From Escherichia phage vB_KppS-Ant: a stretch of 16,548 nt of DNA. Below the pieces are notes generated by a model. The model was not told the DNA's origin. It made no database searches and saw nothing but the letters and a program-made list of their open reading frames with translations. The DNA lies in the sequence record LR881103; one strand, written 5' to 3'. Positions within the stretch are counted from its first letter, which is position 1; each line of letters begins with the position of its first letter. A program made the translations under genes and the position numbers. Below are positions 1 to 16,548 of this stretch, in pieces.

Positions 1-22
1 ACGAAAAGGAAAACAGTAAGTT

Positions 23-379
23 ATGGCAAGACCACCCAAACCGCCCGCTTACCTTGATGAAATCGCGGCGCAGCAGTGGAAAGCAAAGGCGAAGCAACTG
101 GCGGAACGCGGTGATCTGACGCCTGCCGACTGGAACAACCTTGAGCTTTATTGCGTCAACTACTCGATGTACCGCAAAGCCGTGAAGGACCTTGCCGCGC
201 GGGGATTCAGCATTGTGAACAGCCAGGGTGGTGAGAGTCGCAACCCGGCCCTGAGCGCAAAGGCTGATGCCGAAAAAATTCTCATAAAAATGTCGTCTCT
301 GCTGGGCTTTGATCCGGTAAGCCGTCGCCGCAACCCGCCTGAAACTGAAGAGGAAGACGAACTTGACCGCATGGAATGA
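23..379 (+). CDS. terS: Phage terminase small subunit (P27-like family)
   Basis: 118 aa; N-terminal PPKPPAYLD...W, central LTPAD...LE.YC and C-terminal NPAL...GFDPVSRRR pattern typical of P27-type small terminases; sits directly upstream of and overlapping the large terminase. Confidence 0.75.
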   Translation: MARPPKPPAYLDEIAAQQWKAKAKQLAERGDLTPADWNNLELYCVNYSMYRKAVKDLAARGFSIVNSQGGESRNPALSAKADAEKILIKMSSLLGFDPVSRRRNPPETEEEDELDRME

Positions 380-2024
380 TTACGCCATCGCCATAAAATC
401 GGGCGAAATTCCGGCCTGTAAGCGGGTAAAACAGGCCGTCGAAAGGTACTTTTCAGACCTGAATGACCCCCGTTACGTGTTCGATACAGCGACCGTAGAG
501 CGGTTTATTGCGTTCTCCCGGCTTTGTCCTCACGTCAAAGGGCCGTTGCGCGGTCAGCCTATCATGCTGGAGCCGTGGCAGCAGTTCGCCTTTGCTAACC
601 TGCTGGGCTTTAAGGTCAGTGCTACGGGGCGCAGGAAGTACAGCAGCGCCTTTATCGAGGTGCCGCGTAAGAATGCCAAATCCACCGTAGCTGCAATGCT
701 GGCTAACTGGTTTCTGGTGATGGAGCAGGGCCAGCAAGACATTTACACGGCGGCGGTGAGCCGGGATCAGGCTCGTATCGTGTTCGACGATGCCCGTCAG
801 ATGTGCCTGCTGTCAAAACCGCTGAAAAAGCGCGTGAATATTCAGGCTCATAAAATGATTTTCCCGAAGAATAACAGCCTGTTAAAGCCGCTGGCGGCGA
901 AAGCGGCCACCATCGAGGGGACGAATCCCAGCCTGGCTATTGTCGATGAGTACCACCTTCACCCGGATAACGGCGTTTACTCCGCACTTGAGCTGGGTAT
1001 GGGGGCACGTCCTGAAGCGGTTTTATTCGCCATCACCACCGCCGGGAGTAACGTTGTTTCTGCCTGCAAGCAGCATTACGACTACTGCTGTCAGATTCTG
1101 GCCGGGGAAGAGAGCAACGATTCGCTGTTTGTTCTGATTTACGAACTGGACGACGAAAGCGAGGTTGATCAGCCTGAAATGTGGATCAAGGCTAACCCGA
1201 ATCTGGATATCTCCGTTGATGCGGCAAAACTGGAGGCCACTATCCAGAAAGCACGGGGCATCCCGTCGCAATGGGTGGAGATGCTGACCAAACGTTTCAA
1301 TATCTGGTGTCAGGGTTCCACACCGTGGATGGGCGCGGGGGCCTGGGACGCCTGCAAACTCGACTATGAAGAAAGCGAGCTGGCCGGAATGGAATGTTAT
1401 GCAGGTCTGGACTTGTCCTCAACCAGCGATATCACCAGTGTAAATTACGCTTTTCCGTTCGACAGGGAGATTAGGTTACTGACAAGGCACTATCTGCCGG
1501 AAGCGACACTTAATAATGTTTCCAATAAAAACCGCGCCATTTACCGCCAGTGGGTGAAAGCAGGCTGGATTCGTACCACTCCCGGCGACTGCATCGATTA
1601 TGACCGCATCCGCGACGATATTCTGCGCGATGCCGAAACATTCAATATCCGTCTGGTGGGCTTCGATACGTGGAACGCCACGCATCTGCGTACCCAACTA
1701 CAGGGGGCGGGCCTTGAGGTAGAGCCGTTCCAGCAAACCTATCTTAAATTCAGCCCGGTAGCGAAATCGTTTGAAGTGTTCGTTAACCGCAAGGTGGTGC
1801 GCCATCGCGGCGATCCGGTACTGGCCTGGGCGATTGGTAACGTGGTGATGGAGTCCGACGCCAACGCCAATATCAAGCCCAACAAGAAGAAATCCTCCAA
1901 CAAGATTGATCCGGCAGTGGCTGCGTTAATGGCGTTCGGCACATTCCAGGCTGAGCATGAGGATTTTGCATTTGATATGAGCGAAAGCCACAAAGATCGC
2001 CTCAGTCATTTTGACGGGGTGTAA
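363..2024 (+). CDS. terL: Phage terminase large subunit (ATPase/nuclease)
   Basis: 553 aa; Walker A-like VPRKNAKST and Walker B-like LAIVDEYH; C-terminal nuclease-like region; TTG start overlapping the terS 3' end with AGGA 8 nt upstream. Confidence 0.85.
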   Translation: MTAWNDYAIAIKSGEIPACKRVKQAVERYFSDLNDPRYVFDTATVERFIAFSRLCPHVKGPLRGQPIMLEPWQQFAFANLLGFKVSATGRRKYSSAFIEVPRKNAKSTVAAMLANWFLVMEQGQQDIYTAAVSRDQARIVFDDARQMCLLSKPLKKRVNIQAHKMIFPKNNSLLKPLAAKAATIEGTNPSLAIVDEYHLHPDNGVYSALELGMGARPEAVLFAITTAGSNVVSACKQHYDYCCQILAGEESNDSLFVLIYELDDESEVDQPEMWIKANPNLDISVDAAKLEATIQKARGIPSQWVEMLTKRFNIWCQGSTPWMGAGAWDACKLDYEESELAGMECYAGLDLSSTSDITSVNYAFPFDREIRLLTRHYLPEATLNNVSNKNRAIYRQWVKAGWIRTTPGDCIDYDRIRDDILRDAETFNIRLVGFDTWNATHLRTQLQGAGLEVEPFQQTYLKFSPVAKSFEVFVNRKVVRHRGDPVLAWAIGNVVMESDANANIKPNKKKSSNKIDPAVAALMAFGTFQAEHEDFAFDMSESHKDRLSHFDGV

Positions 2025-2035
2025 GGAGAAAGATT

Positions 2036-4333
2036 ATGGCAGGTAAATCATTAGGCACTCTCACCATTGACCTGATCGCCAGAACCGGCGGTTTTGTCCA
2101 GGGTATGGATAAAGCCGAACGTTCATCACAAAAATGGCGGGATAACGTTAAAAAAGATGCCGCAGCCGTGGGTTCAGCCCTTGCTGCTGTTGGCACAGCC
2201 GCAGCAGCGGCGGCTATCGGTGTTAGTGCCGCTGGTATTGCACTGGTAAAAAATACCTCAGAGCAGATCACTGAAACTGATCGCTGGGCTAAATCGCTAA
2301 AAATGTCTACTCAGGATTTGCTTTCATGGCAGTTTGCTGCTGAGAAAGCAGGGTTGACCGGGGATAATATTGCTGACATCTTCAAGGATATTAACGATAA
2401 AGTCGGCGATGCTGTCCTGAACAAGTCAGGTGAGGCTGCTCAGGCTCTGGATACTCTCGGGCTTTCAGCTGAGAAACTGGCCCAGCAATCCCCTGATAAG
2501 CAGTTACTGGCTATCAGCTCGGCATTGCAAAAAATCCCCTCTCAGGCCGGGAAAACTAATATCCTCGAAAGCCTGGGGAATGACCTGTCAAAAATGCTGC
2601 CGTTGTTCGACAACAATAACGAGAAGCTGAAGCAGTTTATCCAGCTGTCAAAAGATTTTGGTGTCGCTCCGCCCCAGGAGGATATTGATAACCTGGTTAA
2701 GGTTAATCAGTTTTTCCAGGATATTGAGAGCAGTGCACAGGGGTTAAAGATCGAGATTGCCAGTGGCCTGGCTAAAGTAGACCTCTCACCGATTCAGGAT
2801 GGACTTGATGATATCCGGGATGTGTTTACCGATCCTGCTGTTCTGTCAGGTCTGGCAAAGCTGGTCGGAGGGATGGCGGAACTTGTTGGCTGGATGGGTA
2901 AGCTAAGTTCTGAATCTGCTAATTTTCTCAGCCATATATTTGAAGTGCCTGACAGGTTTAAGGCGGGTGGCTGGTACGAGTTTGAAAAAAATCAGAGATT
3001 AGGAGCAATAGCAGATACGCTTCAATCAGATTTAGGGGGAATAACTAAACCATCTTCAAACTCTGAGTTGCCAATAAATAATAACCTGCTCCCCGGGCAG
3101 AGCAATCAGAAACAAACTCAAAAGCCTGATGCTGAGGCAAAAAAACTTGAAAGTGCCTATAAAGCCGTAGAACAGTCATATTTAAAGCAAATTGCGCTGG
3201 TGGATCAGCTAACCGGGAAAACCAAAGACGCCACTGAAGTAGAAAAACTACATTTCGATTTAGTATCTGGTCGTCTGGTTGGGATAAATAAAGAACAGCA
3301 AATCAGGCTTGAGGGCTTGGCCTCAGAAGTTGATAAATATAACGCGTTGTCAAAATTTCGAGATTTGCAGGATGAGTTATTAACTCCAGAAGAAAAATTA
3401 CTTAAAACGACGAGAGAACGTTTTGAAATATTAAAAGATATTCAGGGAATGAAGGGGATCAGCCCTGATGAATATAAAAAAGCAGCAGAAGCCATATCGA
3501 AAGATTCATTTACAGATATGCCTAAATTTAGTGGTCTTGATCCGATGTTTGGCGGTCAATCTGGAGAGTTAAGAAAAGTTGATGACGCACAGAAAGAACA
3601 GGAAAAATGGTATCAGAATCAGCTCGATTTGCTGGAACAGAACCGTCAGGCACGTTCTGACCTTAATGATGAGTGGGATGCCAGAGAGCTTGAACTGAAG
3701 AAAAAACACCAGGATGAAATGAATAAGCTCGATGAAGCCCGTAATCAGCTGATGTTGAGCAGTGTTGTCGATGGGCTTGGTTCTATGGTGGATTTGACCC
3801 GTACAGCTTTTGGTGAGCAATCAGGAGTATACAAAGCCGCGTTTGCAGTTCAGAAAGCCGCGGCTATTGCTCAGTCTGTTATCGCTATCCAGCAGGGGAT
3901 CGCGATGGCGGCTGCAAACCCTTTCCCGTACAACCTTGCAGCGATGGCCAGCGTAGCCGCTTCTACAGCCGGTATTGTGTCGAACATTGCGGCCGTGGGT
4001 ATGGCTCACGATGGTATTGATGCTGTTCCAGAAACCGGAACATGGCTTCTCCAGAAGGGCGAACGCGTAGTCACGGCGAATACCAGCGCGAAACTGGATG
4101 CGACCCTTAACCGTGTCGCCCAGCAATCCACTTCTGGTAATCAGATTTCCCAGGAATTTAATTTTAACGTTAATGGCGATCCTTCTGATGCTCAGATAGC
4201 CATGATGAAGAAAGCGGCCGCTGACGGTGCCAAGATGGGGTATCAAAAGGCGGTCAATTCAGTAATTACTGGTCAGGGTGATTTGCACAAGGCTCTGATG
4301 ACGAAAACTAATTCAGGCAGAAAAATAGGGTGA
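2036..4333 (+). CDS. Tail tape-measure-like protein (lambda gpH family architecture)
   Basis: 765 aa; N-terminal GTLTIDLIARTGGFVQGM segment followed by an Ala-rich hydrophobic stretch; long central charged Lys/Glu/Gln-rich helical region; C-terminal hydrophobic Ala/Gly-rich block then GIDAVPETGTWLLQKGERVVTANTS, which resembles the conserved C-terminal motif of lambda-family tape-measure proteins; strong RBS (AAGGAG) upstream. Confidence 0.65.
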   Translation: MAGKSLGTLTIDLIARTGGFVQGMDKAERSSQKWRDNVKKDAAAVGSALAAVGTAAAAAAIGVSAAGIALVKNTSEQITETDRWAKSLKMSTQDLLSWQFAAEKAGLTGDNIADIFKDINDKVGDAVLNKSGEAAQALDTLGLSAEKLAQQSPDKQLLAISSALQKIPSQAGKTNILESLGNDLSKMLPLFDNNNEKLKQFIQLSKDFGVAPPQEDIDNLVKVNQFFQDIESSAQGLKIEIASGLAKVDLSPIQDGLDDIRDVFTDPAVLSGLAKLVGGMAELVGWMGKLSSESANFLSHIFEVPDRFKAGGWYEFEKNQRLGAIADTLQSDLGGITKPSSNSELPINNNLLPGQSNQKQTQKPDAEAKKLESAYKAVEQSYLKQIALVDQLTGKTKDATEVEKLHFDLVSGRLVGINKEQQIRLEGLASEVDKYNALSKFRDLQDELLTPEEKLLKTTRERFEILKDIQGMKGISPDEYKKAAEAISKDSFTDMPKFSGLDPMFGGQSGELRKVDDAQKEQEKWYQNQLDLLEQNRQARSDLNDEWDARELELKKKHQDEMNKLDEARNQLMLSSVVDGLGSMVDLTRTAFGEQSGVYKAAFAVQKAAAIAQSVIAIQQGIAMAAANPFPYNLAAMASVAASTAGIVSNIAAVGMAHDGIDAVPETGTWLLQKGERVVTANTSAKLDATLNRVAQQSTSGNQISQEFNFNVNGDPSDAQIAMMKKAAADGAKMGYQKAVNSVITGQGDLHKALMTKTNSGRKIG

Positions 4334-4548
4334 TGAAGATGACAGAACTTGAAAGTTTATTTTACGAGATGATGCCGGGTCATATTGCCCACGCGATGAA
4401 AATTGAAGGGGCAAAAATTCTGGCAGAAAGTACGCAGAAAGAGGCCGAACGTCAGTCAACGTTAACCGGCCTGTCTTCTGAGCTTATCATTCAAACTGCG
4501 ATTCAGGCGATCTCTATGCAGATGAAAAACTGGCAAGTAGTCCACTGA
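4330..4548 (+). CDS. Hypothetical small protein (72 aa), start overlaps the tape-measure stop
   Basis: ORF with GTG/ATG starts overlapping the upstream TGA; no recognisable motif. Confidence 0.4.
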   Translation: MMKMTELESLFYEMMPGHIAHAMKIEGAKILAESTQKEAERQSTLTGLSSELIIQTAIQAISMQMKNWQVVH

Positions 4549-4597
4549 CAAGGTTATGGCCCTCAATCGGGGGCCACACTACCAACTGAGGTGCTGC

Positions 4598-4786
4598 ATG
4601 TTAAAAAGAGAAGCTTTAGAGTCTGCCATTATCAGTGCAGCAAAATTGCAGGGGCATGATCTTAACGGGCGAGATCGTCTTATGGTGCGTAATCGCGTTG
4701 CCACTTGCTTGGCTGCGAAAGAACGCCACCGGCAAAGGATGGATGCCGAACCGTATCAATGGAGAAAGCCGGAAAGGCCAAGGTGA
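4598..4786 (+). CDS. Hypothetical small basic protein (about 62 aa; internal ATG of ORF 4556..4786)
   Basis: GAGG 6 nt upstream of ATG at 4598 (the ATG at 4556 has only a 2-nt spacer after AAGG); followed by an intrinsic terminator. Confidence 0.3.
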   Translation: MLKREALESAIISAAKLQGHDLNGRDRLMVRNRVATCLAAKERHRQRMDAEPYQWRKPERPR

Positions 4787-4803
4787 TGAACCCAACCAAT
4801 CAA

Positions 4804-4837
4804 AGCACTGGACTATGTTCTGGTGCTTTTTTATTTG
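4804..4837 (+). terminator. Rho-independent terminator (hairpin then T-tract)
   Basis: agcactgg...ctggtgc stem followed by tttttta ttt immediately after the 4786 stop. Confidence 0.5.
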
Positions 4838-4849
4838 TGCGAGCCAACG

Positions 4850-4871
4850 TGTATAAACATATGTATAAACA
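4850..4871. repeat. Tandem pair of TGTATAAACA decamers (left copy of a 22-bp composite repeat)
   Basis: tgtataaaca-ta-tgtataaaca at 4850..4871, repeated 21/22 at 5083..5104. Confidence 0.7.
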
Positions 4872-4875
4872 CTAA

Positions 4876-4915
4876 TAAAAAAGGCGCTTCCCCATGCCGA
4901 AGAGCGCCTTTTTAA
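4876..4915. terminator. Bidirectional intrinsic terminator-like hairpin flanked by A-run and T-run
   Basis: aaaaaAGGCGCT...AGCGCCTTttt: 8-bp stem (4881..4888 with 4903..4910) with A-tract upstream and T-tract downstream. Confidence 0.5.
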
Positions 4916-5082
4916 ACAAGCATTTAACTGATTGGTATCAGTTCATGCCGTACTGTCATATTAGCTGTTTTCATGCTTTTAGATGATTTTAATATTCATA
5001 TAATAATCAATGTGTTGTATAAATTCATGCCTGTATATTGTTCCAGTGTTTTTCTTTGTTTATGCTATTATGCAAGCAATTC

Positions 5083-5104
5083 TGTATAAACATTTGTATA
5101 AACA
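5083..5104. repeat. Tandem pair of TGTATAAACA decamers (right copy), just upstream of the integrase start
   Basis: tgtataaaca-tt-tgtataaaca at 5083..5104; candidate integrase arm-type sites. Confidence 0.7.
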
Positions 5105-5122
5105 CTTTGGGCTGGGTGGTCT

Positions 5123-6343
5123 ATGGCTGGCGAACTTAACAAACTGAGCGACAGGAAGTTAAAGGGATTACATGGTATCCCGGCCAGTAAGATTGAGTTC
5201 TATGCTGATGGTGCCGGGCTGAGCGCCAAGGTAACTAAAGCTGGTGGTATTAGCTGGGTGTTTACTTACCGACTCGACGGGCAGAAGCTGCATCGTCTTA
5301 CTCTGGGACGATACCCGGATATGAGCCTCAAAGAGGCCCGTTCTTCGCGTGATAAATGCCGCCAATGGCTGGCCTCAGGTAAAGATCCAAAGCACCAGTT
5401 GGCGCTGACCACTCAGGAAACGCTTAAACCGGTCACTGTTAAGGAAGCTATAGAATACTGGATACGCGAATATGCAGAAGAGAACCGCGCGAATGTTGAA
5501 CGGCACAAAGCGGAGCTGCGAAAACACATTTATCCTTATATAGGGAAAATGGCGCTCGCTGACTGTGAAACACGATACTGGCTTGACTGCTTTGACAGGA
5601 TGAAAAAGAAAACTCCAGTCGCCGCAGGTTATGTGTTCCAGATGTGCAAACAAGCCCTGAAATTCTGCCGGGTTCGTCGCTATGCTGTGAGTACCGCGCT
5701 TGAAGATTTAACAATTCCAGATGTCGGTAAAAAACAGGCAAAAAAAGACCGGGTATTAAACGATAAAGAGGCTGGCGATTTATGGGCTGCCATTTCCTCT
5801 GGCACTTGCTTCATGCCTTACTACACCAGGCTACTGACAATCTTAATGGTGTTTGGGTGCCGAACGCAGGAGGCCAGGCTATCAGAGTGGAGTGAATGGG
5901 ATATGGATGCCTGGGTCTGGACAGTTCCCAAAGAGCACAGCAAGGGCGGCGAGAAGATTGTAAGACCTGTGCCGGATGCCATGCGCAAATTCATTGAAAT
6001 ACTGCATGATGAAACGAAACGATCCGGCCTTTTGCTTGGGTCGGTTAAAGGCAGTGAAGCGGTAAGTCAGTGGGGCCGCGGTGTTTATAAAAAGCTGGGG
6101 CATTCTGAACCATGGACACTGCACGATCTAAGACGAACTTTAGCAACGCATATGAATAATATGGGTATAGCACCACACGTTGTCGAACAGTTGTTGGGGC
6201 ACTCAATGCCGGGAGTTATGGCGATTTATAACCGTAGTCTGTACTTGCCTGAGAAACTGGATGCGTTGAATAAATGGTATGACAGACTTGATATTTTATC
6301 AGGTGGATTCACTAACATTGTTTTGTTGAATAGGGCTGAATAA
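5123..6343 (+). CDS. int: Tyrosine site-specific integrase, P4-type (N-terminal arm-binding domain plus C-terminal catalytic domain)
   Basis: 406 aa; N-terminal L.D.K...GL.....G..W.F.YR..G.....LG.YP..SL.EAR...D pattern of P4-like integrases; C-terminal HDLRRT ... LLGH ... Y catalytic signature. Confidence 0.9.
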   Translation: MAGELNKLSDRKLKGLHGIPASKIEFYADGAGLSAKVTKAGGISWVFTYRLDGQKLHRLTLGRYPDMSLKEARSSRDKCRQWLASGKDPKHQLALTTQETLKPVTVKEAIEYWIREYAEENRANVERHKAELRKHIYPYIGKMALADCETRYWLDCFDRMKKKTPVAAGYVFQMCKQALKFCRVRRYAVSTALEDLTIPDVGKKQAKKDRVLNDKEAGDLWAAISSGTCFMPYYTRLLTILMVFGCRTQEARLSEWSEWDMDAWVWTVPKEHSKGGEKIVRPVPDAMRKFIEILHDETKRSGLLLGSVKGSEAVSQWGRGVYKKLGHSEPWTLHDLRRTLATHMNNMGIAPHVVEQLLGHSMPGVMAIYNRSLYLPEKLDALNKWYDRLDILSGGFTNIVLLNRAE

Positions 6344-6993
6344 TGACTAGTTTTCTAAAATTGGGTATTTTCGAGCGAGAAGCCAAAGCCCCGGAACTCA
6401 ATATTAAACAACTTGCACTACTTATGTGTGGGGTAGATCCGACAGTTAAAACTGCTGATATCCCTGAGGCGAAAGTTGAAGCTTACAATATATACTATCG
6501 ACAACTGAGTAGATGGTTATCAGCATCTAAATTATTTCGAGGTGGAAACTCAACAGCCTATCCCGCAGACTATATGTTTGCTCTGGCATATCCTCTTATT
6601 GATGAAGATATTACACCACAACCCATAAAGGACAGATGCCTTGCAGCGGTGGCTATAATTGCTAATCAAAACAAAGGAAAAGAGCATCTTTATGCTATGG
6701 GAGGGGATGAGCTTTTACAGGTCGGAATTGCATTGAAAAGCAGCAAACGCGGCTTGCATCGTAAAGAAGATGAAAAGGAATATAATGATAAATTAATGGG
6801 GATGCTGGTCAAGCTTATAGCACATAAGATAGGCCATTCGTTTGGCACCTCTAAAAAACCAAGCATCTCGGCTATTTTAAACGAACTATATAAATTAGCT
6901 GATGAGGAAGGTATATCTAAAACTGGATTATCCAAATCAGCAATATATGATAAAATTCGCAAGGCATTAAATTCGATTTATTATACGGAATGA
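6343..6993 (+). CDS. Hypothetical protein (216 aa), AT-rich cargo gene translationally coupled to int
   Basis: Start overlaps the int stop (TAATG); codon composition visibly more AT-rich than the neighbouring core genes; no recognisable catalytic motif. Confidence 0.55.
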   Translation: MTSFLKLGIFEREAKAPELNIKQLALLMCGVDPTVKTADIPEAKVEAYNIYYRQLSRWLSASKLFRGGNSTAYPADYMFALAYPLIDEDITPQPIKDRCLAAVAIIANQNKGKEHLYAMGGDELLQVGIALKSSKRGLHRKEDEKEYNDKLMGMLVKLIAHKIGHSFGTSKKPSISAILNELYKLADEEGISKTGLSKSAIYDKIRKALNSIYYTE

Positions 6994-7129
6994 ATATTAT
7001 TTTGCAGTGTTAGTGGGTGTTATTTATATTTCATGTGAAAATACTAATTAATTATATTTGTTGGAGCTTTTGGCGATTCTATGATCGCCAAGGAGATTCA
7101 ATTGTTATATTTGATGTTTATTACAGTTA

Positions 7130-7229
7130 CATTCAACAGCATTCAACAGCATTCAACAGCATTCAACGACACGTAACGACACGTAATGACACGTAACGGC
7201 ACCCGACAGCACCTAACAATACCTAGCTC
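7130..7229. repeat. Array of ten contiguous 10-bp units (CATTCAACAG x3, then progressively diverged copies)
   Basis: cattcaacag at 7130, 7140, 7150; cattcaacga, cacgtaacga, cacgtaatga, cacgtaacgg, cacccgacag, cacctaacaa, tacctagctc follow with strict 10-bp period. Confidence 0.8.
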
Positions 7230-7270
7230 CATCCACGGTCTCTACTAGGTCATTACTTGCTAACTTTTTC

Positions 7271-7337
7271 CATCTTTGTTCATGGTTATTCATCACTGTT
7301 CATCAGCGTTCATCATTGTTCATCTTTGTTATGAACA
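7271..7337. repeat. Second 10-bp-periodic array: TGTTCATC-type units (about 5 direct copies plus 1 inverted copy)
   Basis: catctttgtt catggttatt catcactgtt catcagcgtt catcattgtt catctttgtt then atgaaca; the unit is one mismatch from the TGTTCACC octamer clustered at 11720..11950. Confidence 0.75.
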
Positions 7338-7379
7338 ATCCAAGGCGAATCAAATCGTTAAAGAACGGTGATCTTCGGC

Positions 7380-7868: not shown

Positions 7869-7888
7869 TTAACCACAGGTAATCTGAG

Positions 7889-8581: not shown

Positions 8582-8593
8582 CAGGCAAAACAA

Positions 8594-8923: not shown

Positions 8924-8950
8924 CGCAAAACAACCCCTCTTTAAGAGGGG
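8924..8950 (-). terminator. Rho-independent terminator for the minus-strand RHH gene
   Basis: Minus-strand reading: CCCCTCTT-a-AAGAGGGG followed by ttgtttt, about 35 nt downstream of the 8982 stop; a second similar palindrome CCTCTTTAAGAGG lies at 8881..8894. Confidence 0.55.
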
Positions 8951-8981
8951 CAGTTCACAGCATTACGGAGAGTAACCCTGT

Positions 8982-9185: not shown

Positions 9186-9198
9186 TTACCCTCCTGCG

Positions 9199-9271
9199 TA
9201 TAGTGAGGGTACACCATATCAGAAAAATAGCTTGACGTGTACCCCCACCGAAAATATAGTGGGGGTGCACC
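9199..9271 (+). promoter_or_regulatory. Near-consensus sigma70 promoter (TTGACG-17-TATAGT) overlapped by three operator-like 12-mers GTG(A/G)GGGT(A/G)CAC
   Basis: -35 TTGACG 9232..9237, 17-nt spacer, -10 TATAGT 9255..9260; 12-mers at 9203..9214 (+), 9237..9248 (inverted) and 9259..9270 (+); 17-bp direct repeat tatagtgagggtacacc / tatagtgggggtgcacc. Confidence 0.55.
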
Positions 9272-9363
9272 TTGAGGTTGAAGATACTCAAGATACAGCG
9301 AAGCCCGGCAGTGTTACCAGCACTAACCGGGCCTCTGACCACAACGTAACTGAGGCTTACATC

Positions 9364-9552
9364 ATGGCTTGTATACAGCATACCCAAACTCGCCCCAAAT
9401 ATCAGTATCGTTTTCTTGCGCTGAGCGCCATCGGGCGCAACGTCATTCACATCACCGCTACCACTGAGCGCGAAGCCCGTGAGCAATCACCGGATGGATG
9501 CGTGATGGTATTCGCTGGTCGTCTGCCAGTTCGGGAGGGGCACCATGCGTGA
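9364..9552 (+). CDS. Possible small leader protein (about 62 aa), 3' portion of the long ORF 8578..9552
   Basis: ATG at 9364 with GAGG 8 nt upstream, downstream of the 9232..9260 promoter; sequence MACIQHTQTRPKYQYRFLALSAIGRNVIHITATTEREAREQ... looks more protein-like than the upstream part of the frame. Confidence 0.3.
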   Translation: MACIQHTQTRPKYQYRFLALSAIGRNVIHITATTEREAREQSPDGCVMVFAGRLPVREGHHA

Positions 9553-9739
9553 GCCAATCAGCTTAGACCAGGCAGAATACAAATCAGCGCTGGCCGCTTC
9601 ACTCTTCGAAACCATCCTGGAAAAAGCCTCTGCTGAATGTTCAGAAACGCTGCTGAATCTGATTTCTATTGCGTGTGATTTTAATCAGGAAATTCACCGG
9701 GCATTAATCGCTGAGCTGGGTATGGGAGAAACGAAATGA
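9545..9739 (+). CDS. Hypothetical small acidic protein (64 aa)
   Basis: Translationally coupled (overlapping start/stop) within the replication operon; net acidic. Confidence 0.45.
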   Translation: MREPISLDQAEYKSALAASLFETILEKASAECSETLLNLISIACDFNQEIHRALIAELGMGETK

Positions 9740-9954
9740 GACAGGTTCCTTTTGAAGTCCTGATGCACGCTGAAAATGCCCTTTCTGAAAGCGAAGGAGC
9801 CTATGAGGTTCTCAGCATGTGGCTAGACAGTATTCCTGAAAGCGAGGAGTTCCACGGTGAAGCGTGCAAGGTAAGCGCAATCATGTCGCTGCTGCATAAA
9901 TCTATCGGCGAGCTGGTGAAAGCGCGGGAGGCTTACAGTGAAAAACGCGCCTAA
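9736..9954 (+). CDS. Hypothetical small acidic protein (72 aa)
   Basis: ATGA overlap with the upstream ORF; Glu-rich; overlaps the helicase start. Confidence 0.45.
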   Translation: MRQVPFEVLMHAENALSESEGAYEVLSMWLDSIPESEEFHGEACKVSAIMSLLHKSIGELVKAREAYSEKRA

Positions 9955-11689
9955 TGTGAAAACCCTCCCGCGCGACAAAATGGAGGAGGCCATCATCTTT
10001 GCTGGAACGGGAGCATGGAAAGCCGCTCAGGATTACCAGAAAGGGAAGGGCGAGCATGGAGACGATGTTCCGCCTGTGGTTCTGGATCACACCCAACTGG
10101 CGGAATTACCACACCTGCGCATTGTTGATAAAGGCCGTCGATTTGCCCGTGTCTGTCAGGCCGGGCTTATCGAGCAAAACCAAATCAGCATGATTGCAAA
10201 TAAGTTGTGTGAGGCTGGCGTTACCAATGCTGAGTTTATCAACGAACAAGGCGAGAAAGAGGACTGGACGCCATTGATGAAACGTCTGGAAGACGAGCCC
10301 CTTATGGTGACTACGAGGGGAAGTGCTACGCCAGCGCTTAACCAGATGGGAGCCAGCCAGCGCGGGGAAGTTCTGCTTGCTCATTACAATGGCAATCTGG
10401 CGATCCATGCTGATTCCGACACGGTTCATCATTACAACGGCGTGGTGTGGGTTCCGCTTTCGGATAAAGAGCTGCAGCGAGAAATGGCGCAGATTTTTAT
10501 TGATTCCGAAGTCGCCTATTCGCAGAACGCGATTAAATCCGCTGTCGATACAATGAAGCTGGGCCTCCCGGTAATGGGTAACACAGCCCGTAACCTGATT
10601 GGTTTCAGCAACGGGGTTTTTGATACCCGGTTAGGCCAATTTCGACCGCATGATAAAAAGGACTGGCTTATCGTTGCGAGCGAATTGCCATTCAGCGAAC
10701 CAGCAGAAGGTGAAACTCTGGCAACCCATGCGCCTAACTTCTGGAAATGGCTCCGCCGCTCTGTGGCGGATAATGACCGAAAAGCAGACCGCGTACTGTC
10801 TGCGCTGTTTATGGTGCTGGCGAACCGGTACGACTGGCAGCTGTTTCTTGAGGTAACGGGGCCGGGCGGAAGTGGTAAAAGTGTCATGGCTGAGATCTGC
10901 ACGATGCTGGCGGGCAAGGCCAATACGGTATCGGCGAGCATGGCGGCGCTGGAGAACCCAAGGGAAAGGGCGCTGGTAGTTGGCTATTCGCTGATTATCA
11001 TGCCGGATATGACCCGGTACGCTGGCGACGGCGCAGGGATTAAAGCTATCACTGGCGGGGATAAGGTGGCTATCGACCCAAAACACAAAGCGCCATATTC
11101 AACCCGTATCCCGGCGGTGGTGCTGGCCGTCAATAACAATGCTATGACGTTCAGTGACCGCAGCGGCGGTATTTCAAGGCGACGGGTGATTTTCAACTTC
11201 ACCGAAGTAGTGCCGGAAAACGAACGCGATCCGATGCTGGCCGAGAAGATTGAAGGAGAGCTTGCGGTAATCATCCGGCATCTGCTTGTGCGCTTTTCCA
11301 GCCAGAACGAAGCCAAACAGCTTTTGCATGAGCAGCAGAAATCAGAAGAAGCGCTGGCCATCAAACGTGAAGGGGATTCACTGGTGGACTTTTGCGGATA
11401 CCTGATGGCTTCGGTGGTTTGTGATGGAATGCTGATTGGTAATGCCGAGATCGTGCCATTCAGCCCGCGCCGTTATCTGTATCACGCTTATCTGGCTTAC
11501 ATGCGGGCCAATGGTCTTAGCAAGCCTGTATCGTTAATGCGGTTCGGTACGGATATGCCAGGCGCAATGGCTGAATATGGCAAGGAGTACCAGAAGCGCA
11601 AAACTAAAAATGGCATAAGATCGAACGTCACCCTGCATGATGATTCAGAAGACTGGATGCCAATGTGTACCGATACAACAAAAGAATAA
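9938..11689 (+). CDS. Replication protein: P4-alpha / D5-family SF3 helicase (phage/plasmid primase C-terminal type), probable origin-binding initiator
   Basis: 583 aa; Walker A GPGGSGKS about 300 aa in; D5_N-like region upstream (HYNGVVWVP); GTG start with GGGAGG RBS; iteron cluster immediately downstream. Confidence 0.8.
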   Translation: MKNAPNVKTLPRDKMEEAIIFAGTGAWKAAQDYQKGKGEHGDDVPPVVLDHTQLAELPHLRIVDKGRRFARVCQAGLIEQNQISMIANKLCEAGVTNAEFINEQGEKEDWTPLMKRLEDEPLMVTTRGSATPALNQMGASQRGEVLLAHYNGNLAIHADSDTVHHYNGVVWVPLSDKELQREMAQIFIDSEVAYSQNAIKSAVDTMKLGLPVMGNTARNLIGFSNGVFDTRLGQFRPHDKKDWLIVASELPFSEPAEGETLATHAPNFWKWLRRSVADNDRKADRVLSALFMVLANRYDWQLFLEVTGPGGSGKSVMAEICTMLAGKANTVSASMAALENPRERALVVGYSLIIMPDMTRYAGDGAGIKAITGGDKVAIDPKHKAPYSTRIPAVVLAVNNNAMTFSDRSGGISRRRVIFNFTEVVPENERDPMLAEKIEGELAVIIRHLLVRFSSQNEAKQLLHEQQKSEEALAIKREGDSLVDFCGYLMASVVCDGMLIGNAEIVPFSPRRYLYHAYLAYMRANGLSKPVSLMRFGTDMPGAMAEYGKEYQKRKTKNGIRSNVTLHDDSEDWMPMCTDTTKE

Positions 11690-11719
11690 AGGCGGGGAAA
11701 ATTAAAAGTAATGGGATAA

Positions 11720-11950
11720 GTGTTCACCACTGTTCACCATGTATAAAAATCATTAAATAACAATATGTTAATGGGTGAACACTTTTTTATGAAGTGTTCA
11801 CCAAGTATTCACCTGTTCACCCTGTTTTATCTTTTCCTCAGTTTGAGGTGAAGGGTTGGGTGAACACTAGTGAACACCTGAAAGAATAGTATTCACCCTG
11901 TAACTATATGAATTTAATTAATAAATTATCAAAGGTGAACAGGTGAACAC
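11720..11950. promoter_or_regulatory. Origin-like iteron cluster: at least 10 copies of TGTTCACC / GGTGAACA (and the TATTCACC variant) in both orientations in AT-rich DNA
   Basis: Copies at about 11721, 11731, 11774 (inv), 11794, 11805 (variant), 11814, 11859 (inv), 11869 (inv), 11889 (variant), 11934 (inv), 11942 (inv). Confidence 0.65.
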
Positions 11951-12095
11951 TTAAACGTATATTTTTTAATTTTATTGAGCAACGCAGGATCACTTCCAGC
12001 CTGGAATACCTGGGATCAATCATGGAACACGCACCGTGGAATATTAAAAGCTAATATTTTTGTAAATTATTTGTATTCATGTTTACTCATTCTTA

Positions 12096-12123
12096 CCCCC
12101 GTCTTTTGCGGGGGTTTTCTTTA
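12096..12123 (+). terminator. Rho-independent terminator between the replication and head modules
   Basis: CCCCCG-tcttttg-CGGGGG (6-bp GC stem) followed by ttttcttt. Confidence 0.6.
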
Positions 12124-12289
12124 TATTTTTCATGTATATCTTGAAGAGTGGCACTCAGACGTGAGCCGCCACTGGCCGTTAAGTCAAGCTGTAGCGAGTA
12201 CAGCCTGCGAGAGGCAGAAAAAGATTTAACGGCCTCCCCTCCAAGCGCTGGTTTCACGTCTCTACATTAATTGATACGGAAACCACTCC

Positions 12290-13450
12290 ATGAAGAAACT
12301 ACTCGAATTACGCCAGCAGAAAGCCGCACTCAAAACACAGATGCGTTCCATGCTGGACAAAGCCGACACCGAAAAGCGCAGCCTGAACGAAGAAGAGGGC
12401 AAAAAGTTCGACGAACTCCGCGCACAGGCTGATGCGCTTGAAGTTGAAATCAACCGCCTTGAAGCCGTCGCCGAAGATCAGCGCAATCTGCCTGGTACTT
12501 CCGTTGAAGGTGATCCAGTAAGCAACGACGAGCTGCGCCACTACATCATGACCGGTGATACCCGTTCTCTCTCCACGCTGGTGCAGGCTGACGGCGGTTA
12601 TACCGTTATCCCTGAGCTGGACAAAGAGATTATGCGCCAGTTGCAGGATGATAGCGTGATGCGCTCCATCGCAACGGTGAAGACCACCAAAACCAACGAA
12701 TACCAGAAGCTGGTATCTGTGGGCGGCACTACCGTTAATCGTGGTACCGAAGGTGAGGCACGTACCGAAACCAGTACGCCGAAGATGGAGCGCGTTGATA
12801 TCAAACTCAACCCGATCTACGCCTACCCGAAAACCACTCAGGAGATTCTCGACTTCTCCGAGGTGGATATTTTGGGCTGGCTGTCTTCTGAAATTGCCGA
12901 CACCTTCACCGCGACCGAAGAAAGCGACTTTGTGAACGGCGACGGTGATAAAAAATCCAAAGGCTTCCTGTCTTACCCTCGCGCGGCCACTGCCGACAAA
13001 ACCCGTCCGTTCGGTACGCTGGAGAAGATGGAAGCGGCTGACGTTTCCTCTGATGGCCTGATCGACCTGCTGTATAAGCTGAAAGCCAAATACCGCAAAA
13101 ACGCCGTATGGGTGATGAACTCCAACACCGCAGCCAAACTGCAAAAGCTGAAAAACGGCAACGGGGATTACATCTGGCGCGATCGTCTGGTTGCCGGTTC
13201 TCCCGATACCCTGCTGGGCCGTCCGGTTCAGTACCTTGAAACCATGCCTGATGCTGATGCCGGAGAAGCGTTCCTCGCGGTTGGCGACTTCAAGCGCGGT
13301 TACTTCATCGTGGATCACACTACTGGTGTGCGTACCCGCCCTGACAACATCACCGAGCCGGGCTTCTATAAGGTTCACACCGATAAATATCTGGGCGGCG
13401 GCGTGGTGGACTCCAACGCGATCAAGATTCTGGAGCTTGCTGGTTCCTGA
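12290..13450 (+). CDS. Major capsid protein, HK97 fold/family
   Basis: 386 aa; N-terminal coiled-coil delta-domain-like region (KKLLELRQQKAALKTQ...), then ADGGYTVIPELDKEI and the overall HK97-family pattern. Confidence 0.85.
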   Translation: MKKLLELRQQKAALKTQMRSMLDKADTEKRSLNEEEGKKFDELRAQADALEVEINRLEAVAEDQRNLPGTSVEGDPVSNDELRHYIMTGDTRSLSTLVQADGGYTVIPELDKEIMRQLQDDSVMRSIATVKTTKTNEYQKLVSVGGTTVNRGTEGEARTETSTPKMERVDIKLNPIYAYPKTTQEILDFSEVDILGWLSSEIADTFTATEESDFVNGDGDKKSKGFLSYPRAATADKTRPFGTLEKMEAADVSSDGLIDLLYKLKAKYRKNAVWVMNSNTAAKLQKLKNGNGDYIWRDRLVAGSPDTLLGRPVQYLETMPDADAGEAFLAVGDFKRGYFIVDHTTGVRTRPDNITEPGFYKVHTDKYLGGGVVDSNAIKILELAGS

Positions 13451-13460
13451 TTCGACGTGT

Positions 13461-13477
13461 GAGGGGCTTCGGCCCCT
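13461..13477 (+). other. Stable hairpin with UUCG tetraloop between capsid and protease genes (possible attenuator or mRNA stabiliser)
   Basis: AGGGGC-ttcg-GCCCCT; only a short U-run follows. Confidence 0.35.
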
Positions 13478-13501
13478 TTCTGCCCTCTGTGGAGTCCAAT
13501 A

Positions 13502-14062
13502 ATGAAAACAATAGATTTTGAAATCCGCACCTCTGAACTGACCGCTACTGATAAGAAGCTGGTGGGCTATGCCGTGCGCTGGAACAGTCTGTCAGAAATC
13601 ATCTGGGATGAATTCAGGGAACAGTTCGCGCCGGGAGCGTTTAAAGACAGCCTGGCATCCGGTAGCGATGTGCGGGCGTTGTATGAGCATAACTATACCC
13701 AACTGCTGGGACGTACCAAATCTGGCACGCTGGTGCTGTCAGAAGATGATACCGGGCTGCGCTTTGAGCTGACGCCGCCGAATACTCAGCTTGGTAATGA
13801 TGTGCTGGCGCTGGTGGAACGTGGCGATCTTTCAGGTATGAGCTTTGGTTTCCGTGCGCTGAAAGAGTCCTGGGATATTGCGCAATCCCCGTACCTGCGA
13901 ACAGTGACCGCTGCCGAACTACGGGAAATCACCGTTACTTCCATGCCTGCTTACCCTGAATCCGGCGTGGAAATCGCGCACCGTTCGCTTTTCTCCCAAC
14001 ATCCTGAACTGCGCCGCGCTGGCGATAACCGTCGCCGCTGGGCTGAATTAGCGGGGCTCTGA
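13502..14062 (+). CDS. Prohead maturation protease, HK97 family
   Basis: 186 aa; GYAVRWN..., YEHNYTQLLGRT (His), LSEDDTGLRF, GMSFGF (Ser) pattern. Confidence 0.8.
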   Translation: MKTIDFEIRTSELTATDKKLVGYAVRWNSLSEIIWDEFREQFAPGAFKDSLASGSDVRALYEHNYTQLLGRTKSGTLVLSEDDTGLRFELTPPNTQLGNDVLALVERGDLSGMSFGFRALKESWDIAQSPYLRTVTAAELREITVTSMPAYPESGVEIAHRSLFSQHPELRRAGDNRRRWAELAGL

Positions 14063-14063
14063 T

Positions 14064-15299
14064 ATGTGGAATATCTGGCCGTTTGGCCGTAAGTCTGAAC
14101 CCTCTGAGCAGCGCAGCATGACCATTGATGAATTTCTGGCGATGGCAGGGATTCCAAATACCGGATCAGGCGAGTATGTGTCTGCGGGTACTGCGGAATC
14201 TCTGCCGGCGGTAATGAACGCCGTATCAGTTATCAGTGAGGCGGTGGCAACAATGCCCTGCTACCTCTACCGCGTGCGCAACGATAACGGGCGTGAGGCG
14301 CGGGAATGGCTGAGCAATCACCCGGTGGATTTTCTGCTGAATGAGCAGCCGAATATTTGCCAGACGCCTTACCAGTTCAAGCGCACGATGATGCGCCACT
14401 GTCTGCTGAACGGTAACGCCTATGCGGTGATCCAGTGGGGCCGCGACGGCCAGCCACAATCCCTGCATCCGTATGCGCCGGGGGCGGTTGTTCCTGAGCG
14501 TATCGGCGAGCATAAGTACAAATACACCATCACTGAGCCGTTTACCGGGGCTGTACGTACCTATTTGCAGGAAGAGATTCTGCACCTGCGTTATTCCACC
14601 GATGACGGTTTTCTGGGGCGCTCGCCGATCACCATTTGCCGGGAGGCGCTGGGGTTAGGTCTGGCCCAACAGCGCCACGGTGCCAGCATTATGAAAGATG
14701 GCATGATGGCGGCGGGCGTCATTACGGCTAAAGAATGGCTGGATAGCGTTAAAGGGAAAAGTGCACTTGAGGCGCTGGAGCGCTACAAAGGTGCAAGGAA
14801 TGCCGGGAAAACGCCGATCCTTGAAGGGGGGATGGACTACAAACAGCTTGGCATGAGCAATCAGGATGCCGAGTGGCTGGCCTCCCGCCGTTTCACCATT
14901 GAAGATATTGCCCGCATGTTCAACGTGTCGCCCATCTTCCTGCAGGAATACAGCAACAGCACCTACAGCAACTTCAGCGAGGCAAGCCGCGCTTTTCTCA
15001 CCATGACTATGCGCCCGTGGCTGGCGAACTTCGAGCAGCAGATTAAATCCGCGCTGCTGGTGGCTTCTCCTGTGCCGGGTATTCGTTATCAGGTGGAATT
15101 TGATTCCGCTGACCTTCTCCGCGCTACTCCTACCGAACGCTACGCAACCTATGAGCGCGGCATCAAGAACGGGATCATGAATCCTAACGAGGCTCGCGAG
15201 CGTGAGGGCATGGCACCGCGTGAAGGCGGTGACGAGTTCAGCCAGGCATGGAAGCAGGAAGTCACTGTGAGCAAGGGCAATAAGGATGGTGACGAATGA
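14064..15299 (+). CDS. Portal protein, HK97 family
   Basis: 411 aa; AVMNAVSVISEAVATMP and ARMFNVSPIFL segments typical of HK97-type portals. Confidence 0.8.
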   Translation: MWNIWPFGRKSEPSEQRSMTIDEFLAMAGIPNTGSGEYVSAGTAESLPAVMNAVSVISEAVATMPCYLYRVRNDNGREAREWLSNHPVDFLLNEQPNICQTPYQFKRTMMRHCLLNGNAYAVIQWGRDGQPQSLHPYAPGAVVPERIGEHKYKYTITEPFTGAVRTYLQEEILHLRYSTDDGFLGRSPITICREALGLGLAQQRHGASIMKDGMMAAGVITAKEWLDSVKGKSALEALERYKGARNAGKTPILEGGMDYKQLGMSNQDAEWLASRRFTIEDIARMFNVSPIFLQEYSNSTYSNFSEASRAFLTMTMRPWLANFEQQIKSALLVASPVPGIRYQVEFDSADLLRATPTERYATYERGIKNGIMNPNEAREREGMAPREGGDEFSQAWKQEVTVSKGNKDGDE

Positions 15300-15637
15300 A
15301 AGCCGGAAAGATGAAACGCCGCGTCACTATTCAGCAGTTCGTCAGTCACCAGGACCCGAACACGGGGTCAGTCACTAAAGAATGGCGCGATGTTGCCACC
15401 GTTTGGGGGGAGATAGACAGCGTAAGCGGGCGGGAGCTTGTAGCCGCCCAGGCTGAACAGTCAGAGATGACAGTCAGAATCTGGATTCGCTATCGCAAAG
15501 GCGTTACCACCAAAAACAGACTGACCTGCACAGAAAAAGGAATGCCTGTAACCATCTACGACATCAAAGCTGTTCTGCCTGATGCAGATCGTACCCGCCT
15601 TGAAATTATGTGCACCGGAGGGCTGACCAGTGGCTGA
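15296..15637 (+). CDS. Head-tail adaptor / head closure protein (SPP1 gp16-like head-tail joining family)
   Basis: 113 aa; RRVTIQ...D..G....W..V..VWGEI....GRE........MTVRIWIRYR pattern; ATGA overlap with the portal stop. Confidence 0.65.
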   Translation: MKAGKMKRRVTIQQFVSHQDPNTGSVTKEWRDVATVWGEIDSVSGRELVAAQAEQSEMTVRIWIRYRKGVTTKNRLTCTEKGMPVTIYDIKAVLPDADRTRLEIMCTGGLTSG

Positions 15638-15923
15638 AACTATTGAACTTGCTGAAGCAAAACTTCACTGCCGTATTGATGGCGATGATGAAGATTTGCT
15701 CATTCAGGCTTACATCGATGCGGCTCTGGAGGTTTGCCAGAAACATATCGGCAAGCGGTTTGATAGTGGGCTGGAGCTTACCCCGGCTATCAAAATCGGT
15801 TGCCTGATGTACGTCTCTCAGTTGTACGAGTACCGCACGATGATTAGCGATGTGGAGGCGAAAGAGGTTCCTCTTGCTGTCTCAGCGCTGTGGTCTGTCT
15901 ATCGTGACGTGGGGGTGTACTGA
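15630..15923 (+). CDS. gp6-like head-tail connector protein
   Basis: 97 aa; LAEAKLHCRIDGDDEDLLIQAYIDAA...; GTG start overlapping the upstream gene. Confidence 0.65.
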   Translation: MAETIELAEAKLHCRIDGDDEDLLIQAYIDAALEVCQKHIGKRFDSGLELTPAIKIGCLMYVSQLYEYRTMISDVEAKEVPLAVSALWSVYRDVGVY

Positions 15924-16366
15924 TGCCGTGGCAACCCTTACGCCGTTGCACTGAGCCGGGATGCAACAAGCGCGTGAAGTCTGGTAAATGCGATGAGCAT
16001 AAACGGGAGGTGTGGCGGGCACAGGATGCCAGACGCGGCCACCGTCGCGCCCGTGGTTACTCAGCAGCATGGGAGAAGTATCGCGCCCAGTATCTAAAAC
16101 GCTATCCCCTGTGCGCTGAGTGCCAGAAGCAGGGCCTCTTCGTTCCTGCAAAGATTGTCGATCACATCATCCCTATCGACGGCGGTGATGATGTTCTGTT
16201 CTGGCCTGAGTGGAATCACCAGCCGTTATGCCAGACGCATCATAACCAGAAGACCACACAGCAAGACCCTATCACCAAAGCCAATCGCAAAGCGGGGATG
16301 TACCACGAGCAGGAAGAGCGGGCAGCACAGCGCAATAACTGGATGTATGAGGTTGATCATGAATGA
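15923..16366 (+). CDS. HNH endonuclease (terminase-associated type)
   Basis: 147 aa; Cys pairs CTEPGC and CAECQ plus DHIIPIDGGDD...NHQPLCQTHHNQK HNH signature. Confidence 0.85.
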   Translation: MPWQPLRRCTEPGCNKRVKSGKCDEHKREVWRAQDARRGHRRARGYSAAWEKYRAQYLKRYPLCAECQKQGLFVPAKIVDHIIPIDGGDDVLFWPEWNHQPLCQTHHNQKTTQQDPITKANRKAGMYHEQEERAAQRNNWMYEVDHE

Positions 16367-16511
16367 GAAAGACGTGGTGAATCTGTATCAGTCGCTGGCC
16401 CGATGCCGTGATGGCTTCATGCAGACCCGCACCAGACGCGATGAGCGCCAGCCTGTGCAGCGCATGAGTGAGCGTGACCGGGAGTTGCGGGAATGCTTCC
16501 GCAACCGCTGA
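16359..16511 (+). CDS. Hypothetical small Arg-rich protein (about 50 aa), internal start of ORF 16155..16511
   Basis: ATG at 16359 overlaps the HNH stop; GAGG 6 nt upstream. Confidence 0.35.
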   Translation: MNEKDVVNLYQSLARCRDGFMQTRTRRDERQPVQRMSERDRELRECFRNR

Positions 16512-16548
16512 CAGGCCGCACCGATGGGGTGGGGGAGGTTTTCAGGAC

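Follow-up and report, generated by a model that had tools for sequence, protein, structure and literature searches.

Phage-inducible chromosomal islands of the capsid-forming type (cf-PICIs) are satellites that build their own small capsids and borrow tails. The prototype, EcCIEDL933, encodes a P4-type integrase, AlpA, a primase, an HK97-type capsid module and HNH-TerS-TerL cos packaging and uses siphophage tails; its transfer depended on the tape measure gene of the helper itself (Alqurainy et al., bioRxiv 10.1101/2022.09.08.507074). KpCIDSM30104 of Klebsiella pneumoniae, located on AJJI01000015 with a size of 16,628 bp (Table S2), is induced in a helper-dependent manner by a resident podovirus, packages island-sized DNA with cohesive ends very efficiently, and makes small tail-less capsids that are infectious once mixed with the tails of siphophage HK022; tail specificity is determined by the adaptor and connector proteins, and HK106 tails are not used (He et al., bioRxiv 10.1101/2025.02.11.637232). 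Here we analyze sequence record LR881103, Escherichia phage vB_KppS-Ant (16,548 nt; this whole stretch is the window), which we identify, with very little doubt, as the complete excised genome of KpCIDSM30104, written from its cos region and 69 bp short. The cf-PICI nature of the element is already known, that is, published and experimentally dissected, and its architecture itself adds nothing new; our subject is the gene that follows the large terminase gene (terL), tmp, which encodes a siphophage-type tail tape measure protein (TMP).

Likened by published description, EcCIEDL933 has all of the components listed above in common with the window; it differs in using HK106 rather than HK022 tails and in its divergent adaptor and connector. 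Satellite phage P4 shares with the window the P4-type integrase, an AlpA/Vis-like regulator, a P4-family primase-helicase and an Icd-like gene, but lacks genes for capsid, portal and terminase and relies on the head, tail and cos of P2. We rejected a P4-like satellite (no Psu, Delta or Sid match in any library searched; own capsid and terminase genes) and also a classical, capsid-stealing PICI (the window encodes a portal, a connector, a head closure protein and TerL, the components by which SatelliteFinder excludes that class). The phage-inducible chromosomal island-like elements (PLEs) of Vibrio cholerae resemble the window in that the satellite encodes its own TMP; however, they are unrelated elements that steal capsids and encode a tail assembly chaperone and, in some cases, a baseplate hub (Mathur, Boyd et al., Nature 2026, PMC12987554).

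The identity of the window was established by nucleotide alignment of its whole length with AJJI01000015.1 and KN046818.1. Positions 1-4952 and 8653-16548 show no mismatches to GCA_000742135.1 and GCA_000281755.1, and positions 4935-12343 show none to the integrase (int) side of the island in GCA_000742135.1; the sole departure from the island of K. pneumoniae DSM 30104 is a short attachment (att) segment, where the window has the attR-side version. AJJI01000015 is a contig of GCA_000281755.1, and the link between the window and KpCIDSM30104 rests on it; because there are no mismatches to this contig, the published site of that island, the window is KpCIDSM30104, in an excised permutation that starts with the small terminase gene (terS) and from which 69 bp of the cos spacer are absent.

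The excised state is apparent from the gene order, which is a circular permutation of that of the chromosomal islands (e.g., the Escherichia coli OW1E2 relative reads int ... HNH-terS-terL between yhdJ and fis). Positions 4869-4952 align to both the attL side and the attR side of the OW1E2 island; because a single segment matches both attL and attR of chromosomal copies, the window carries attP. In the Klebsiella copies, all nine of the differences between window and attL fall in 4877-4934. Positions 4935-4952, which cover the final four codons of fis and its stop codon, are identical in attL, attR and attP, and the crossover is therefore placed within them. The repeat TGTATAAACA has six matches (0.68 expected), including two exact pairs on either side of the att core; these pairs fit arm-type integrase sites. 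The features that close the window are:

4873-4952, no strand: attP homology segment of 80 bp, which copies the 3' end of fis with its terminator and matches attL and attR
4850-4871, + strand: putative arm-type repeat pair, TGTATAAACA twice (P arm), one of the exact pairs flanking the core
5083-5104, + strand: putative arm-type repeat pair, TGTATAAACA twice (P' arm), the other exact pair
1-22, no strand: left end, terS-proximal part of the HNH-terS spacer (cos region), from end mapping
16512-16548, no strand: right end, HNH-proximal part of the cos spacer, from end mapping

In chromosomal copies the two window ends are 69 bp apart, in the spacer between terS and the open reading frame (ORF) of 50 codons that follows the HNH gene. 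The 69 bp without counterpart in the window (positions 7897-7965 of loci L004 and L087) are found in all chromosomal copies and run GAACACGAGGGCGCC...GAAAATAAA, with a G-rich/C-rich mirror pair and T runs; the gap may stem from cos ends or from trimming during assembly. The HNH-terS spacer is also where PQ569648.1, an independent record assembled from a phage lysate, is broken; it has the terS-first, HNH-last order with an attP junction. From these ends we infer that cos lies inside the HNH-terS spacer and that the window comes from excised or packaged DNA; both the attP junction and the cos-region ends are consistent with the published induction and self-packaging. As an excised form that is broken in the cos region, the window locates attP, delimits the interval for cos and puts the likely crossover at 4935-4952.

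With attP inside and its ends in the cos spacer, the window closes on itself, so no contiguous tail or lysis module is possible. In the chromosome the island is bordered on its left by acrEF-like and TetR-regulator genes and on its right by fis-dusB-prmA; no genes for a tail, lysis or a CI-type repressor were found adjoining it in the chromosomal copies. The initial annotation of the window, made from the letters alone, had named contiguous genes of these kinds as the observation that would make the element an ordinary prophage; the sequence is instead closed by attP and bordered by host genes. A defective or ordinary prophage, with tail, lysis and immunity genes outside the window or deleted, would share the HK97-type head genes, the terminase genes and the one tail gene (tmp), but we give it next to no credence: it is refuted by the closure via attP and the cos spacer, host genes border the chromosomal copies on both sides, the ~16-kb layout is seen again in each Klebsiella and E. 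coli genome whose fis site was examined, and the element is experimentally mobile as a satellite. A temperate siphophage (HK97/HK022-like prophage) was likewise rejected, as a full tail module, a lysis cassette and CI/Cro-type immunity are absent from the closed sequence and the chromosomal flanks. Each occupant of the fis 3' site that we examined is an island of this type, with a common core layout in six of the six E. coli and Klebsiella genomes examined there (1,052 E. coli genomes had a match).

Several of the properties by which cf-PICIs are recognized are present. The size (16,548 bp plus the 69-bp gap, or about 16.6 kb) lies in the range of about 10-18 kb; an integrase, AlpA regulation and a primase-helicase with an origin are encoded; and eight of the eight required genes score above their Pfam cutoffs, in the published order. 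As in the definition of He et al., there are no lysis genes and no complete tail module, and the only tail gene is tmp. Against the assignment stand the strictest published definitions, which admit no tail genes (zero in the search of Alqurainy et al.; tail profiles are a ‘forbidden’ component in SatelliteFinder), as the element carries a full-length TMP at 2036-4333; in addition, the cos cleavage site itself lies outside the window, so cos is placed indirectly. Nothing that contradicts the cf-PICI reading turned up in the analysis, and because this exact element is an experimentally validated cf-PICI, the zero-tail-gene criterion is evidently too narrow.

The initial annotation had read the window as a satellite that builds its own small capsid and packages itself but depends on a helper for tails and lysis; gene set, size and topology fit a cf-PICI, and the data of He et al. 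on KpCIDSM30104 concur. The induction, packaging and small-capsid experiments that it proposed have been published by the same authors, in support of this reading, and the satellite was correctly recognized from sequence alone. The statement that tail tube, sheath, baseplate and lysis genes are lacking also holds: in searches with Pfam, PHROGs, NCBIfam and PADLOC (not every library on every ORF) there was no match to a tail tube, terminator, chaperone, tail tip, sheath, baseplate, holin or endolysin. One tail gene was overlooked, tmp, and this modifies the picture of tail dependence without overturning it. The gene and its small neighbors are:

2036-4333, + strand: siphophage-type TMP, full-length, 765 residues; phrog_2854 over the whole length (E 2e-176), no Pfam match
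4330-4548, + strand: small orphan ORF (71-72 residues) that overlaps the TMP stop; no family match, found only where TMP occurs
4556-4786, + strand: small ORF, phrog_7271 (E 2e-22), in relatives the final gene ahead of attR; E. coli islands have a homologue

The tmp gene starts 11 nt past the terL stop, has its own GGAG ribosome-binding site, and ends in a stop that overlaps the start of the 72-residue ORF; its protein is 100% identical to the copy encoded in GCA_000742135.1 and GCA_000281755.1. A truncated or decoy TMP fragment was considered and discarded, because the phrog_2854 match is full-length and both hydrophobic segments are present. The window resembles an assembled contig, with 69 bp missing at the ends, so the adjacency of tmp and terL might be suspected to be an assembly chimera; we regard this as refuted and its probability as negligible, because the junction recurs in complete chromosomes, in many independent assemblies and in IMG/VR contigs.

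In the cf-PICI contexts examined, tmp is always directly 3' of terL. It is widespread in Klebsiella and Raoultella (at least 8 species), and the islands that bear it carry three replication modules (D5/P4 primase, AAA_25 and DUF927). Among the 120 alleles listed, the length is 765 residues in every one that is at least 92% identical and 765-767 residues in more distant full-length ones, and none is broken or frameshifted, save those cut by contig ends; that no broken allele occurs is an argument for maintenance of the gene. Every locus with TMP also has the 72-residue ORF, and relatives without TMP and phages lack it; it has no homologue in phage records, and its homologues in the protein database are from Klebsiella only.

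The published accounts have little to say about this gene. ‘Tape measure’ does not occur in the text of He et al. (bioRxiv 10.1101/2025.02.11.637232) or in the supplements searched, where the slot after the packaging genes is merely expected to encode immune systems; an extended-data figure of Mathur, Boyd et al. (Nature 2026, PMC12987554) maps ‘a sampling of cf-PICIs encoding putative tmp genes’ without further study. The presence of tmp in cf-PICIs is, then, already noted in passing and little explored; the conserved, intact gene is not discussed in the papers on this island, and it is disqualifying for satellite-finding software.

The TMP homologues in IMG/VR and genome contigs are split by context: copies that are 79-98% identical occur in cf-PICIs, and homologues that are 86-90% identical, followed by progressively more distant ones, occur in ~40-kb siphophage prophages, with tail tip genes following them. 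Residues 1-440 of the island TMP share 50% identity with the TMP of HK022 (gp16); the TMP of HK106 has no similarity to it. The prophages with the closest TMPs (86-87%) also resemble HK022 in gp9 (88%), gp10 (80%), the terminator (76%), the major tail protein (71%) and the chaperone (66%). Because the island TMP is akin to that of HK022 and to those of prophages with HK022-like necks and unrelated to that of HK106, the island likely carries the TMP of its natural tail-donor lineage. HK022 and the related Klebsiella prophages, the likely natural donors, thus share TMP similarity with the island and HK022-like necks with one another; however, they are complete phages of ~40 kb with tail tube/tip and lysis modules, and in TerL, portal and capsid their identity to the island is no more than 25-40%. 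A tail shorter than that of the nearest relatives is not expected, as the island TMP has 765 residues and the closest prophage TMPs have 765-767.

Satellite and prophage tmp genes have not evolved separately. Over a tract of 1,351 nt (window 2696-4045) the window tmp has a single difference from the TMP gene of L007, a prophage remnant, compared with 139 differences in the 660 nt before and 146 in the 290 nt after this tract. The window tmp departs from the commonest satellite allele in a patch of 565 nt, where it agrees with the prophage; an unrelated patch is present in a further satellite allele (L014). This shared tract and these patches establish that satellite and prophage tmp genes exchange segments; the L007 prophage TMP and a cf-PICI-type TMP (P0002), encoded on a contig of equal length (5,369,222 bp), suggest gene conversion within one genome. 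Two satellite alleles have a ratio of nonsynonymous to synonymous divergence (dN/dS) of 0.07 at a dS of 0.55, but the exchange with prophages weakens this ratio as proof of selection inside the satellite. The prophage remnant itself (L007 8067-12304; K. pneumoniae GCA_014218685.1) has an IS200/IS605 tnpA-tnpB pair directly 5' of its TMP gene and no head or tail tube genes. One decayed Klebsiella island (L004 12488-13701) has a transposase gene (HTH_Tnp_1, rve) just after tmp, and its 72-residue ORF is cut.

These data bear on whether tmp is passive cargo, acquired once by recombination with a phage and persisting without function. It lies in the variable slot for accessory genes that follows terL, has no copy in any of the E. 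coli relatives or in the relative associated with phage P12620-1 (vide infra), and has a G+C content below that of the packaging genes; HK022 tails without the island TMP still give infectious particles, and the low dN/dS may have been acquired while the tracts resided in phages, given the evident recombination with prophage TMPs. Even so, we think passive cargo improbable: apart from cuts at contig ends, none of the 120 listed alleles is truncated or frameshifted; the gene spans the Klebsiella and Raoultella species and the three replication modules; the junction is precise and takes in the ORF only, with its own ribosome-binding site 11 nt after terL; dN/dS is low between the two satellite alleles despite their dS; and tmp is tightly linked to the overlapping orphan ORF.

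We tentatively favor a functional TMP, which would be built into, or would redirect, the tails of co-resident natural Klebsiella donors with HK022-type necks, possibly together with the 72-residue orphan, to yield chimeric tails that favor the satellite; the E. coli relatives may do something similar via a gpI-like protein. A precedent exists in the PLE satellites, whose TMPs are built into chimeric tails (PMC12987554). The PLE TMP is, however, only ~20% identical to the phage TMP and gives shorter tails, whereas the island TMP is 86-100% identical in segments to prophage TMPs and equal to them in length. Other observations weigh against a required structural role: capsids of KpCIDSM30104 are infectious with HK022 tails from other cells, and such tails cannot hold the island TMP; the native strain is without a siphophage (both from He et al., bioRxiv 10.1101/2025.02.11.637232); and no gene for a tail assembly chaperone is present in the island.

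The TMP, by itself or together with the 72-residue ORF, could also be an interference or defense device against the tail assembly or DNA entry of related siphophages, acting through mixed TMP multimers or as an Rta-like inhibitor paired with a resistant TMP. The tmp slot is where cf-PICIs are expected to carry immune systems; the central 1.35 kb is near-identical to a prophage TMP gene and both ends differ, a pattern suited to co-assembly with misfit; PLE11 pairs the 80-residue anti-TMP protein Rta with its own resistant TMP (PMC12987554), a loose parallel; and the orphan accompanies TMP exclusively. We nonetheless regard such a device as doubtful. PADLOC gave no defense-family match for TMP, both small ORFs or the other unassigned ORFs; tmp is predicted to be co-transcribed with the packaging unit, which is induced, and this does not point to a constitutive defense; poisoning tails that the satellite itself needs looks costly; and the differing ends simply follow from recombination limited to the gene interior. 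We would rank tail entry or steering first, an interference device second and passive cargo third; the remaining probability would go to further roles, for instance bypassing superinfection exclusion when DNA enters the cell.

Should the TMP have a part in tail assembly, cf-PICIs would not simply borrow finished tails, and detection rules that forbid tail genes would miss or mis-trim part of the cf-PICI family. Manipulation of tail assembly by a satellite, so far shown only for PLEs, would then extend to cf-PICIs, whose current definition is that they ‘only steal tails’.

The closest relatives outside Klebsiella are the E. coli cf-PICIs at the yhdJ-fis site (EcCIGN02175-type and others; for example, OW1E2, GN02050, PE15 and 21AR0133), which resemble the window in att site, integrase (98-100% amino acid identity), layout and packaging module (87-98%). 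They differ in what follows terL: DUF3892, a tail assembly protein that resembles lambda gpI, or nothing but the phrog_7271 ORF. The terL-tmp junction was found in none of 5,426 complete E. coli genomes; only prophage TMPs were matched there, in the N-terminal third (78%). In two loci (L002 17898-18497 and L096 18070-18648) a full-length lambda gpI-like protein is encoded directly after terL (phrog_32, E 2e-74; 64% identical to the HK022 gpI homologue). As read from these loci, single genes for internal tail proteins recur in the post-terL slot.

The slot before the capsid gene (11690-12290) is without accessory genes in the window and contains only the origin, a terminator hairpin and an unsupported 84-residue ORF; because this slot is empty, the TMP cassette is the island's only accessory cargo. 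The same slot holds two accessory genes in each of the relatives L001, L002 and L003. A decayed island in another genome is without the segment from primase to portal (L091 10903-11694).

The record of ‘Klebsiella phage P12620-1’ (PQ569648.1; 106.5 kb) ends in a 15.9-kb cf-PICI relative (90645-106503; L097 3001-18859) that is about 84-88% identical in aligned segments, has the excised terS-first order and the attP junction, and contains no TMP. It is probably a satellite that was purified along with the phage and became attached to the phage sequence during assembly.

Profile annotation of the ORFs, as the initial annotation had suggested, recovered every gene that it named, including a complete HK97-type head module (capsid, protease, portal, head closure and connector) and the HNH and terminase genes. 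Its remark that all of these are on one strand is correct for the named components and fails for one gene that it did not name, the YlcI/YnfO gene (8982-9185, minus strand). The head and packaging module and the hairpins that delimit it are:

12095-12115, + strand: terminator-like hairpin (8-bp G+C-rich stem and T run) between the replication and packaging modules
12290-13450, + strand: HK97-fold major capsid protein (Phage_capsid, 1e-68)
13502-14062, + strand: S78 prohead serine protease (Pfam, 1e-47)
14064-15299, + strand: portal (Pfam, 6e-95)
15296-15637, + strand: head closure/head-tail adaptor (Phage_HCP, 1e-26)
15630-15923, + strand: gp6-like head-tail connector (Phage_connect_1, 4e-10)
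15923-16366, + strand: HNH endonuclease (Pfam HNH, 2e-5; 24.9 bits, gathering cutoff 21.4)
16359-16511, + strand: conserved 50-residue ORF after HNH, called in all relatives
23-379, + strand: small terminase, P27 family (Pfam Terminase_4, E 3e-25)
363-2024, + strand: large terminase (Pfam TerL_ATPase, 2e-26; TerL_nuclease, 2e-54)
4802-4829, + strand: intrinsic-terminator-like hairpin (11-bp stem and T run) that would end the packaging-TMP unit

From 12115 across the end-to-start junction to 4802, the only terminator-like site on the + strand is a weak one of 5 pairs (12847-12863). Because the strong + strand hairpins are found only at 12095-12115 and 4802-4829, the genes from capsid through terL, tmp and the two small ORFs are predicted to form one transcription unit. 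A promoter scan returned 16 sites with 18 expected, which is not above chance, and we claim no promoter. Two further ORFs were rejected as genes: the 84-residue ORF at 11975-12229, which has no match and spans the terminator hairpin, and a 356-residue antisense ORF at 12308-13378, which also has no match.

The life cycle that we propose takes gene content, att and origin anatomy, closure and identity to the published island from this analysis, and induction, packaging, tail-less small capsids and HK022 tail use from the literature; from these we infer the transcription unit and the cos position. The island resides at the fis 3' end, where the P4-type integrase would act via the 80-bp attP homology segment and the arm repeats. 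A helper phage induces it, leading to excision; the AlpA family regulates excision in related elements. Replication would proceed from the iteron origin beside the P4/D5-type primase-helicase, and one long rightward transcript would cover capsid, protease, portal, head closure, connector, HNH, the 50-residue ORF, terS, terL, tmp and the two small ORFs. The island's own HK97-type proteins would form the small capsid, and HNH, TerS and TerL would cut cos in the HNH-terS spacer and package the ~16.6-kb genome. The capsid becomes infectious only after a siphophage tail joins, and the island TMP may enter or manipulate tails built by the donor, as in PLE satellites.

The integration, regulation and replication region, in which the initial annotation had placed a P4-type integrase, AlpA and a superfamily 3 (SF3) helicase with an iteron origin, contains these features:

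5123-6343, + strand: P4-type tyrosine integrase (Pfam Arm-DNA-bind_3, 5e-19; Phage_integrase, 4e-18)
6343-6993, + strand: 216-residue ORF, phrog_30524 (E 1e-120); no match in Pfam, NCBIfam or PADLOC
7584-7868, + strand: AlpA-family regulator (Pfam Phage_AlpA, 5e-10)
7889-8581, + strand: 230-residue ORF 3' of alpA; no family match in Pfam, PADLOC, PHROGs or NCBIfam
8982-9185, - strand: YlcI/YnfO (DUF3950) protein, 67 residues, the only minus-strand gene (NCBIfam NF041551, E 4e-16; PF13132 in chromosomal copies)
9364-9552, + strand: Icd-like protein, 62 residues (NCBIfam NF033153, E 8e-17)
9545-9954, + strand: two small ORFs of 64 and 72 residues (phrog_35285 and phrog_2196)
9938-11689, + strand: P4/D5-type primase-helicase (SF3; Pfam D5_N, DUF5906 and Pox_D5)
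11718-11952, no strand: replication origin with GTTCACC iterons in both orientations, in AT-rich DNA, from the iteron count

All eight of the exact GTTCACC copies in the window fall in 11722-11948, just 3' of the helicase stop (1.7 expected; none of 200 shuffles reached eight). NCBIfam TIGR01613 (‘primase, P4 family’) matches 9938-11689 with an E-value of 1.5e-28 and 99.5 bits, under the curated cutoff of 108.7. According to He et al. (bioRxiv 10.1101/2025.02.11.637232), the slot after alpA is variable and its function is not known. An Rfam scan of the whole window gave no match at E <= 0.1, and there are no tRNA genes in the window.

We consider a 324-residue ORF at 8578-9552 to be a probable artifact. 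Its family match (Icd-like) is confined to the final 62 codons (9364-9552), the minus-strand YlcI/YnfO gene sits inside it, and similarity to E. coli DNA is patchy across it; it is called in some public annotations, and several relatives annotate the short gene only.

The 590-bp intergenic region 5' of alpA has a G+C content of 0.37 and contains tandem repeats with a 10-bp period at 7129-7330: CATTCAACAG (3.8 copies), AACGACACGT (3.8 copies) and TCATCNNNGT (six copies), followed by the inverted ATGAACAA. Their phasing at one helical turn suggests a regulator-binding or bent-DNA region of the island switch.

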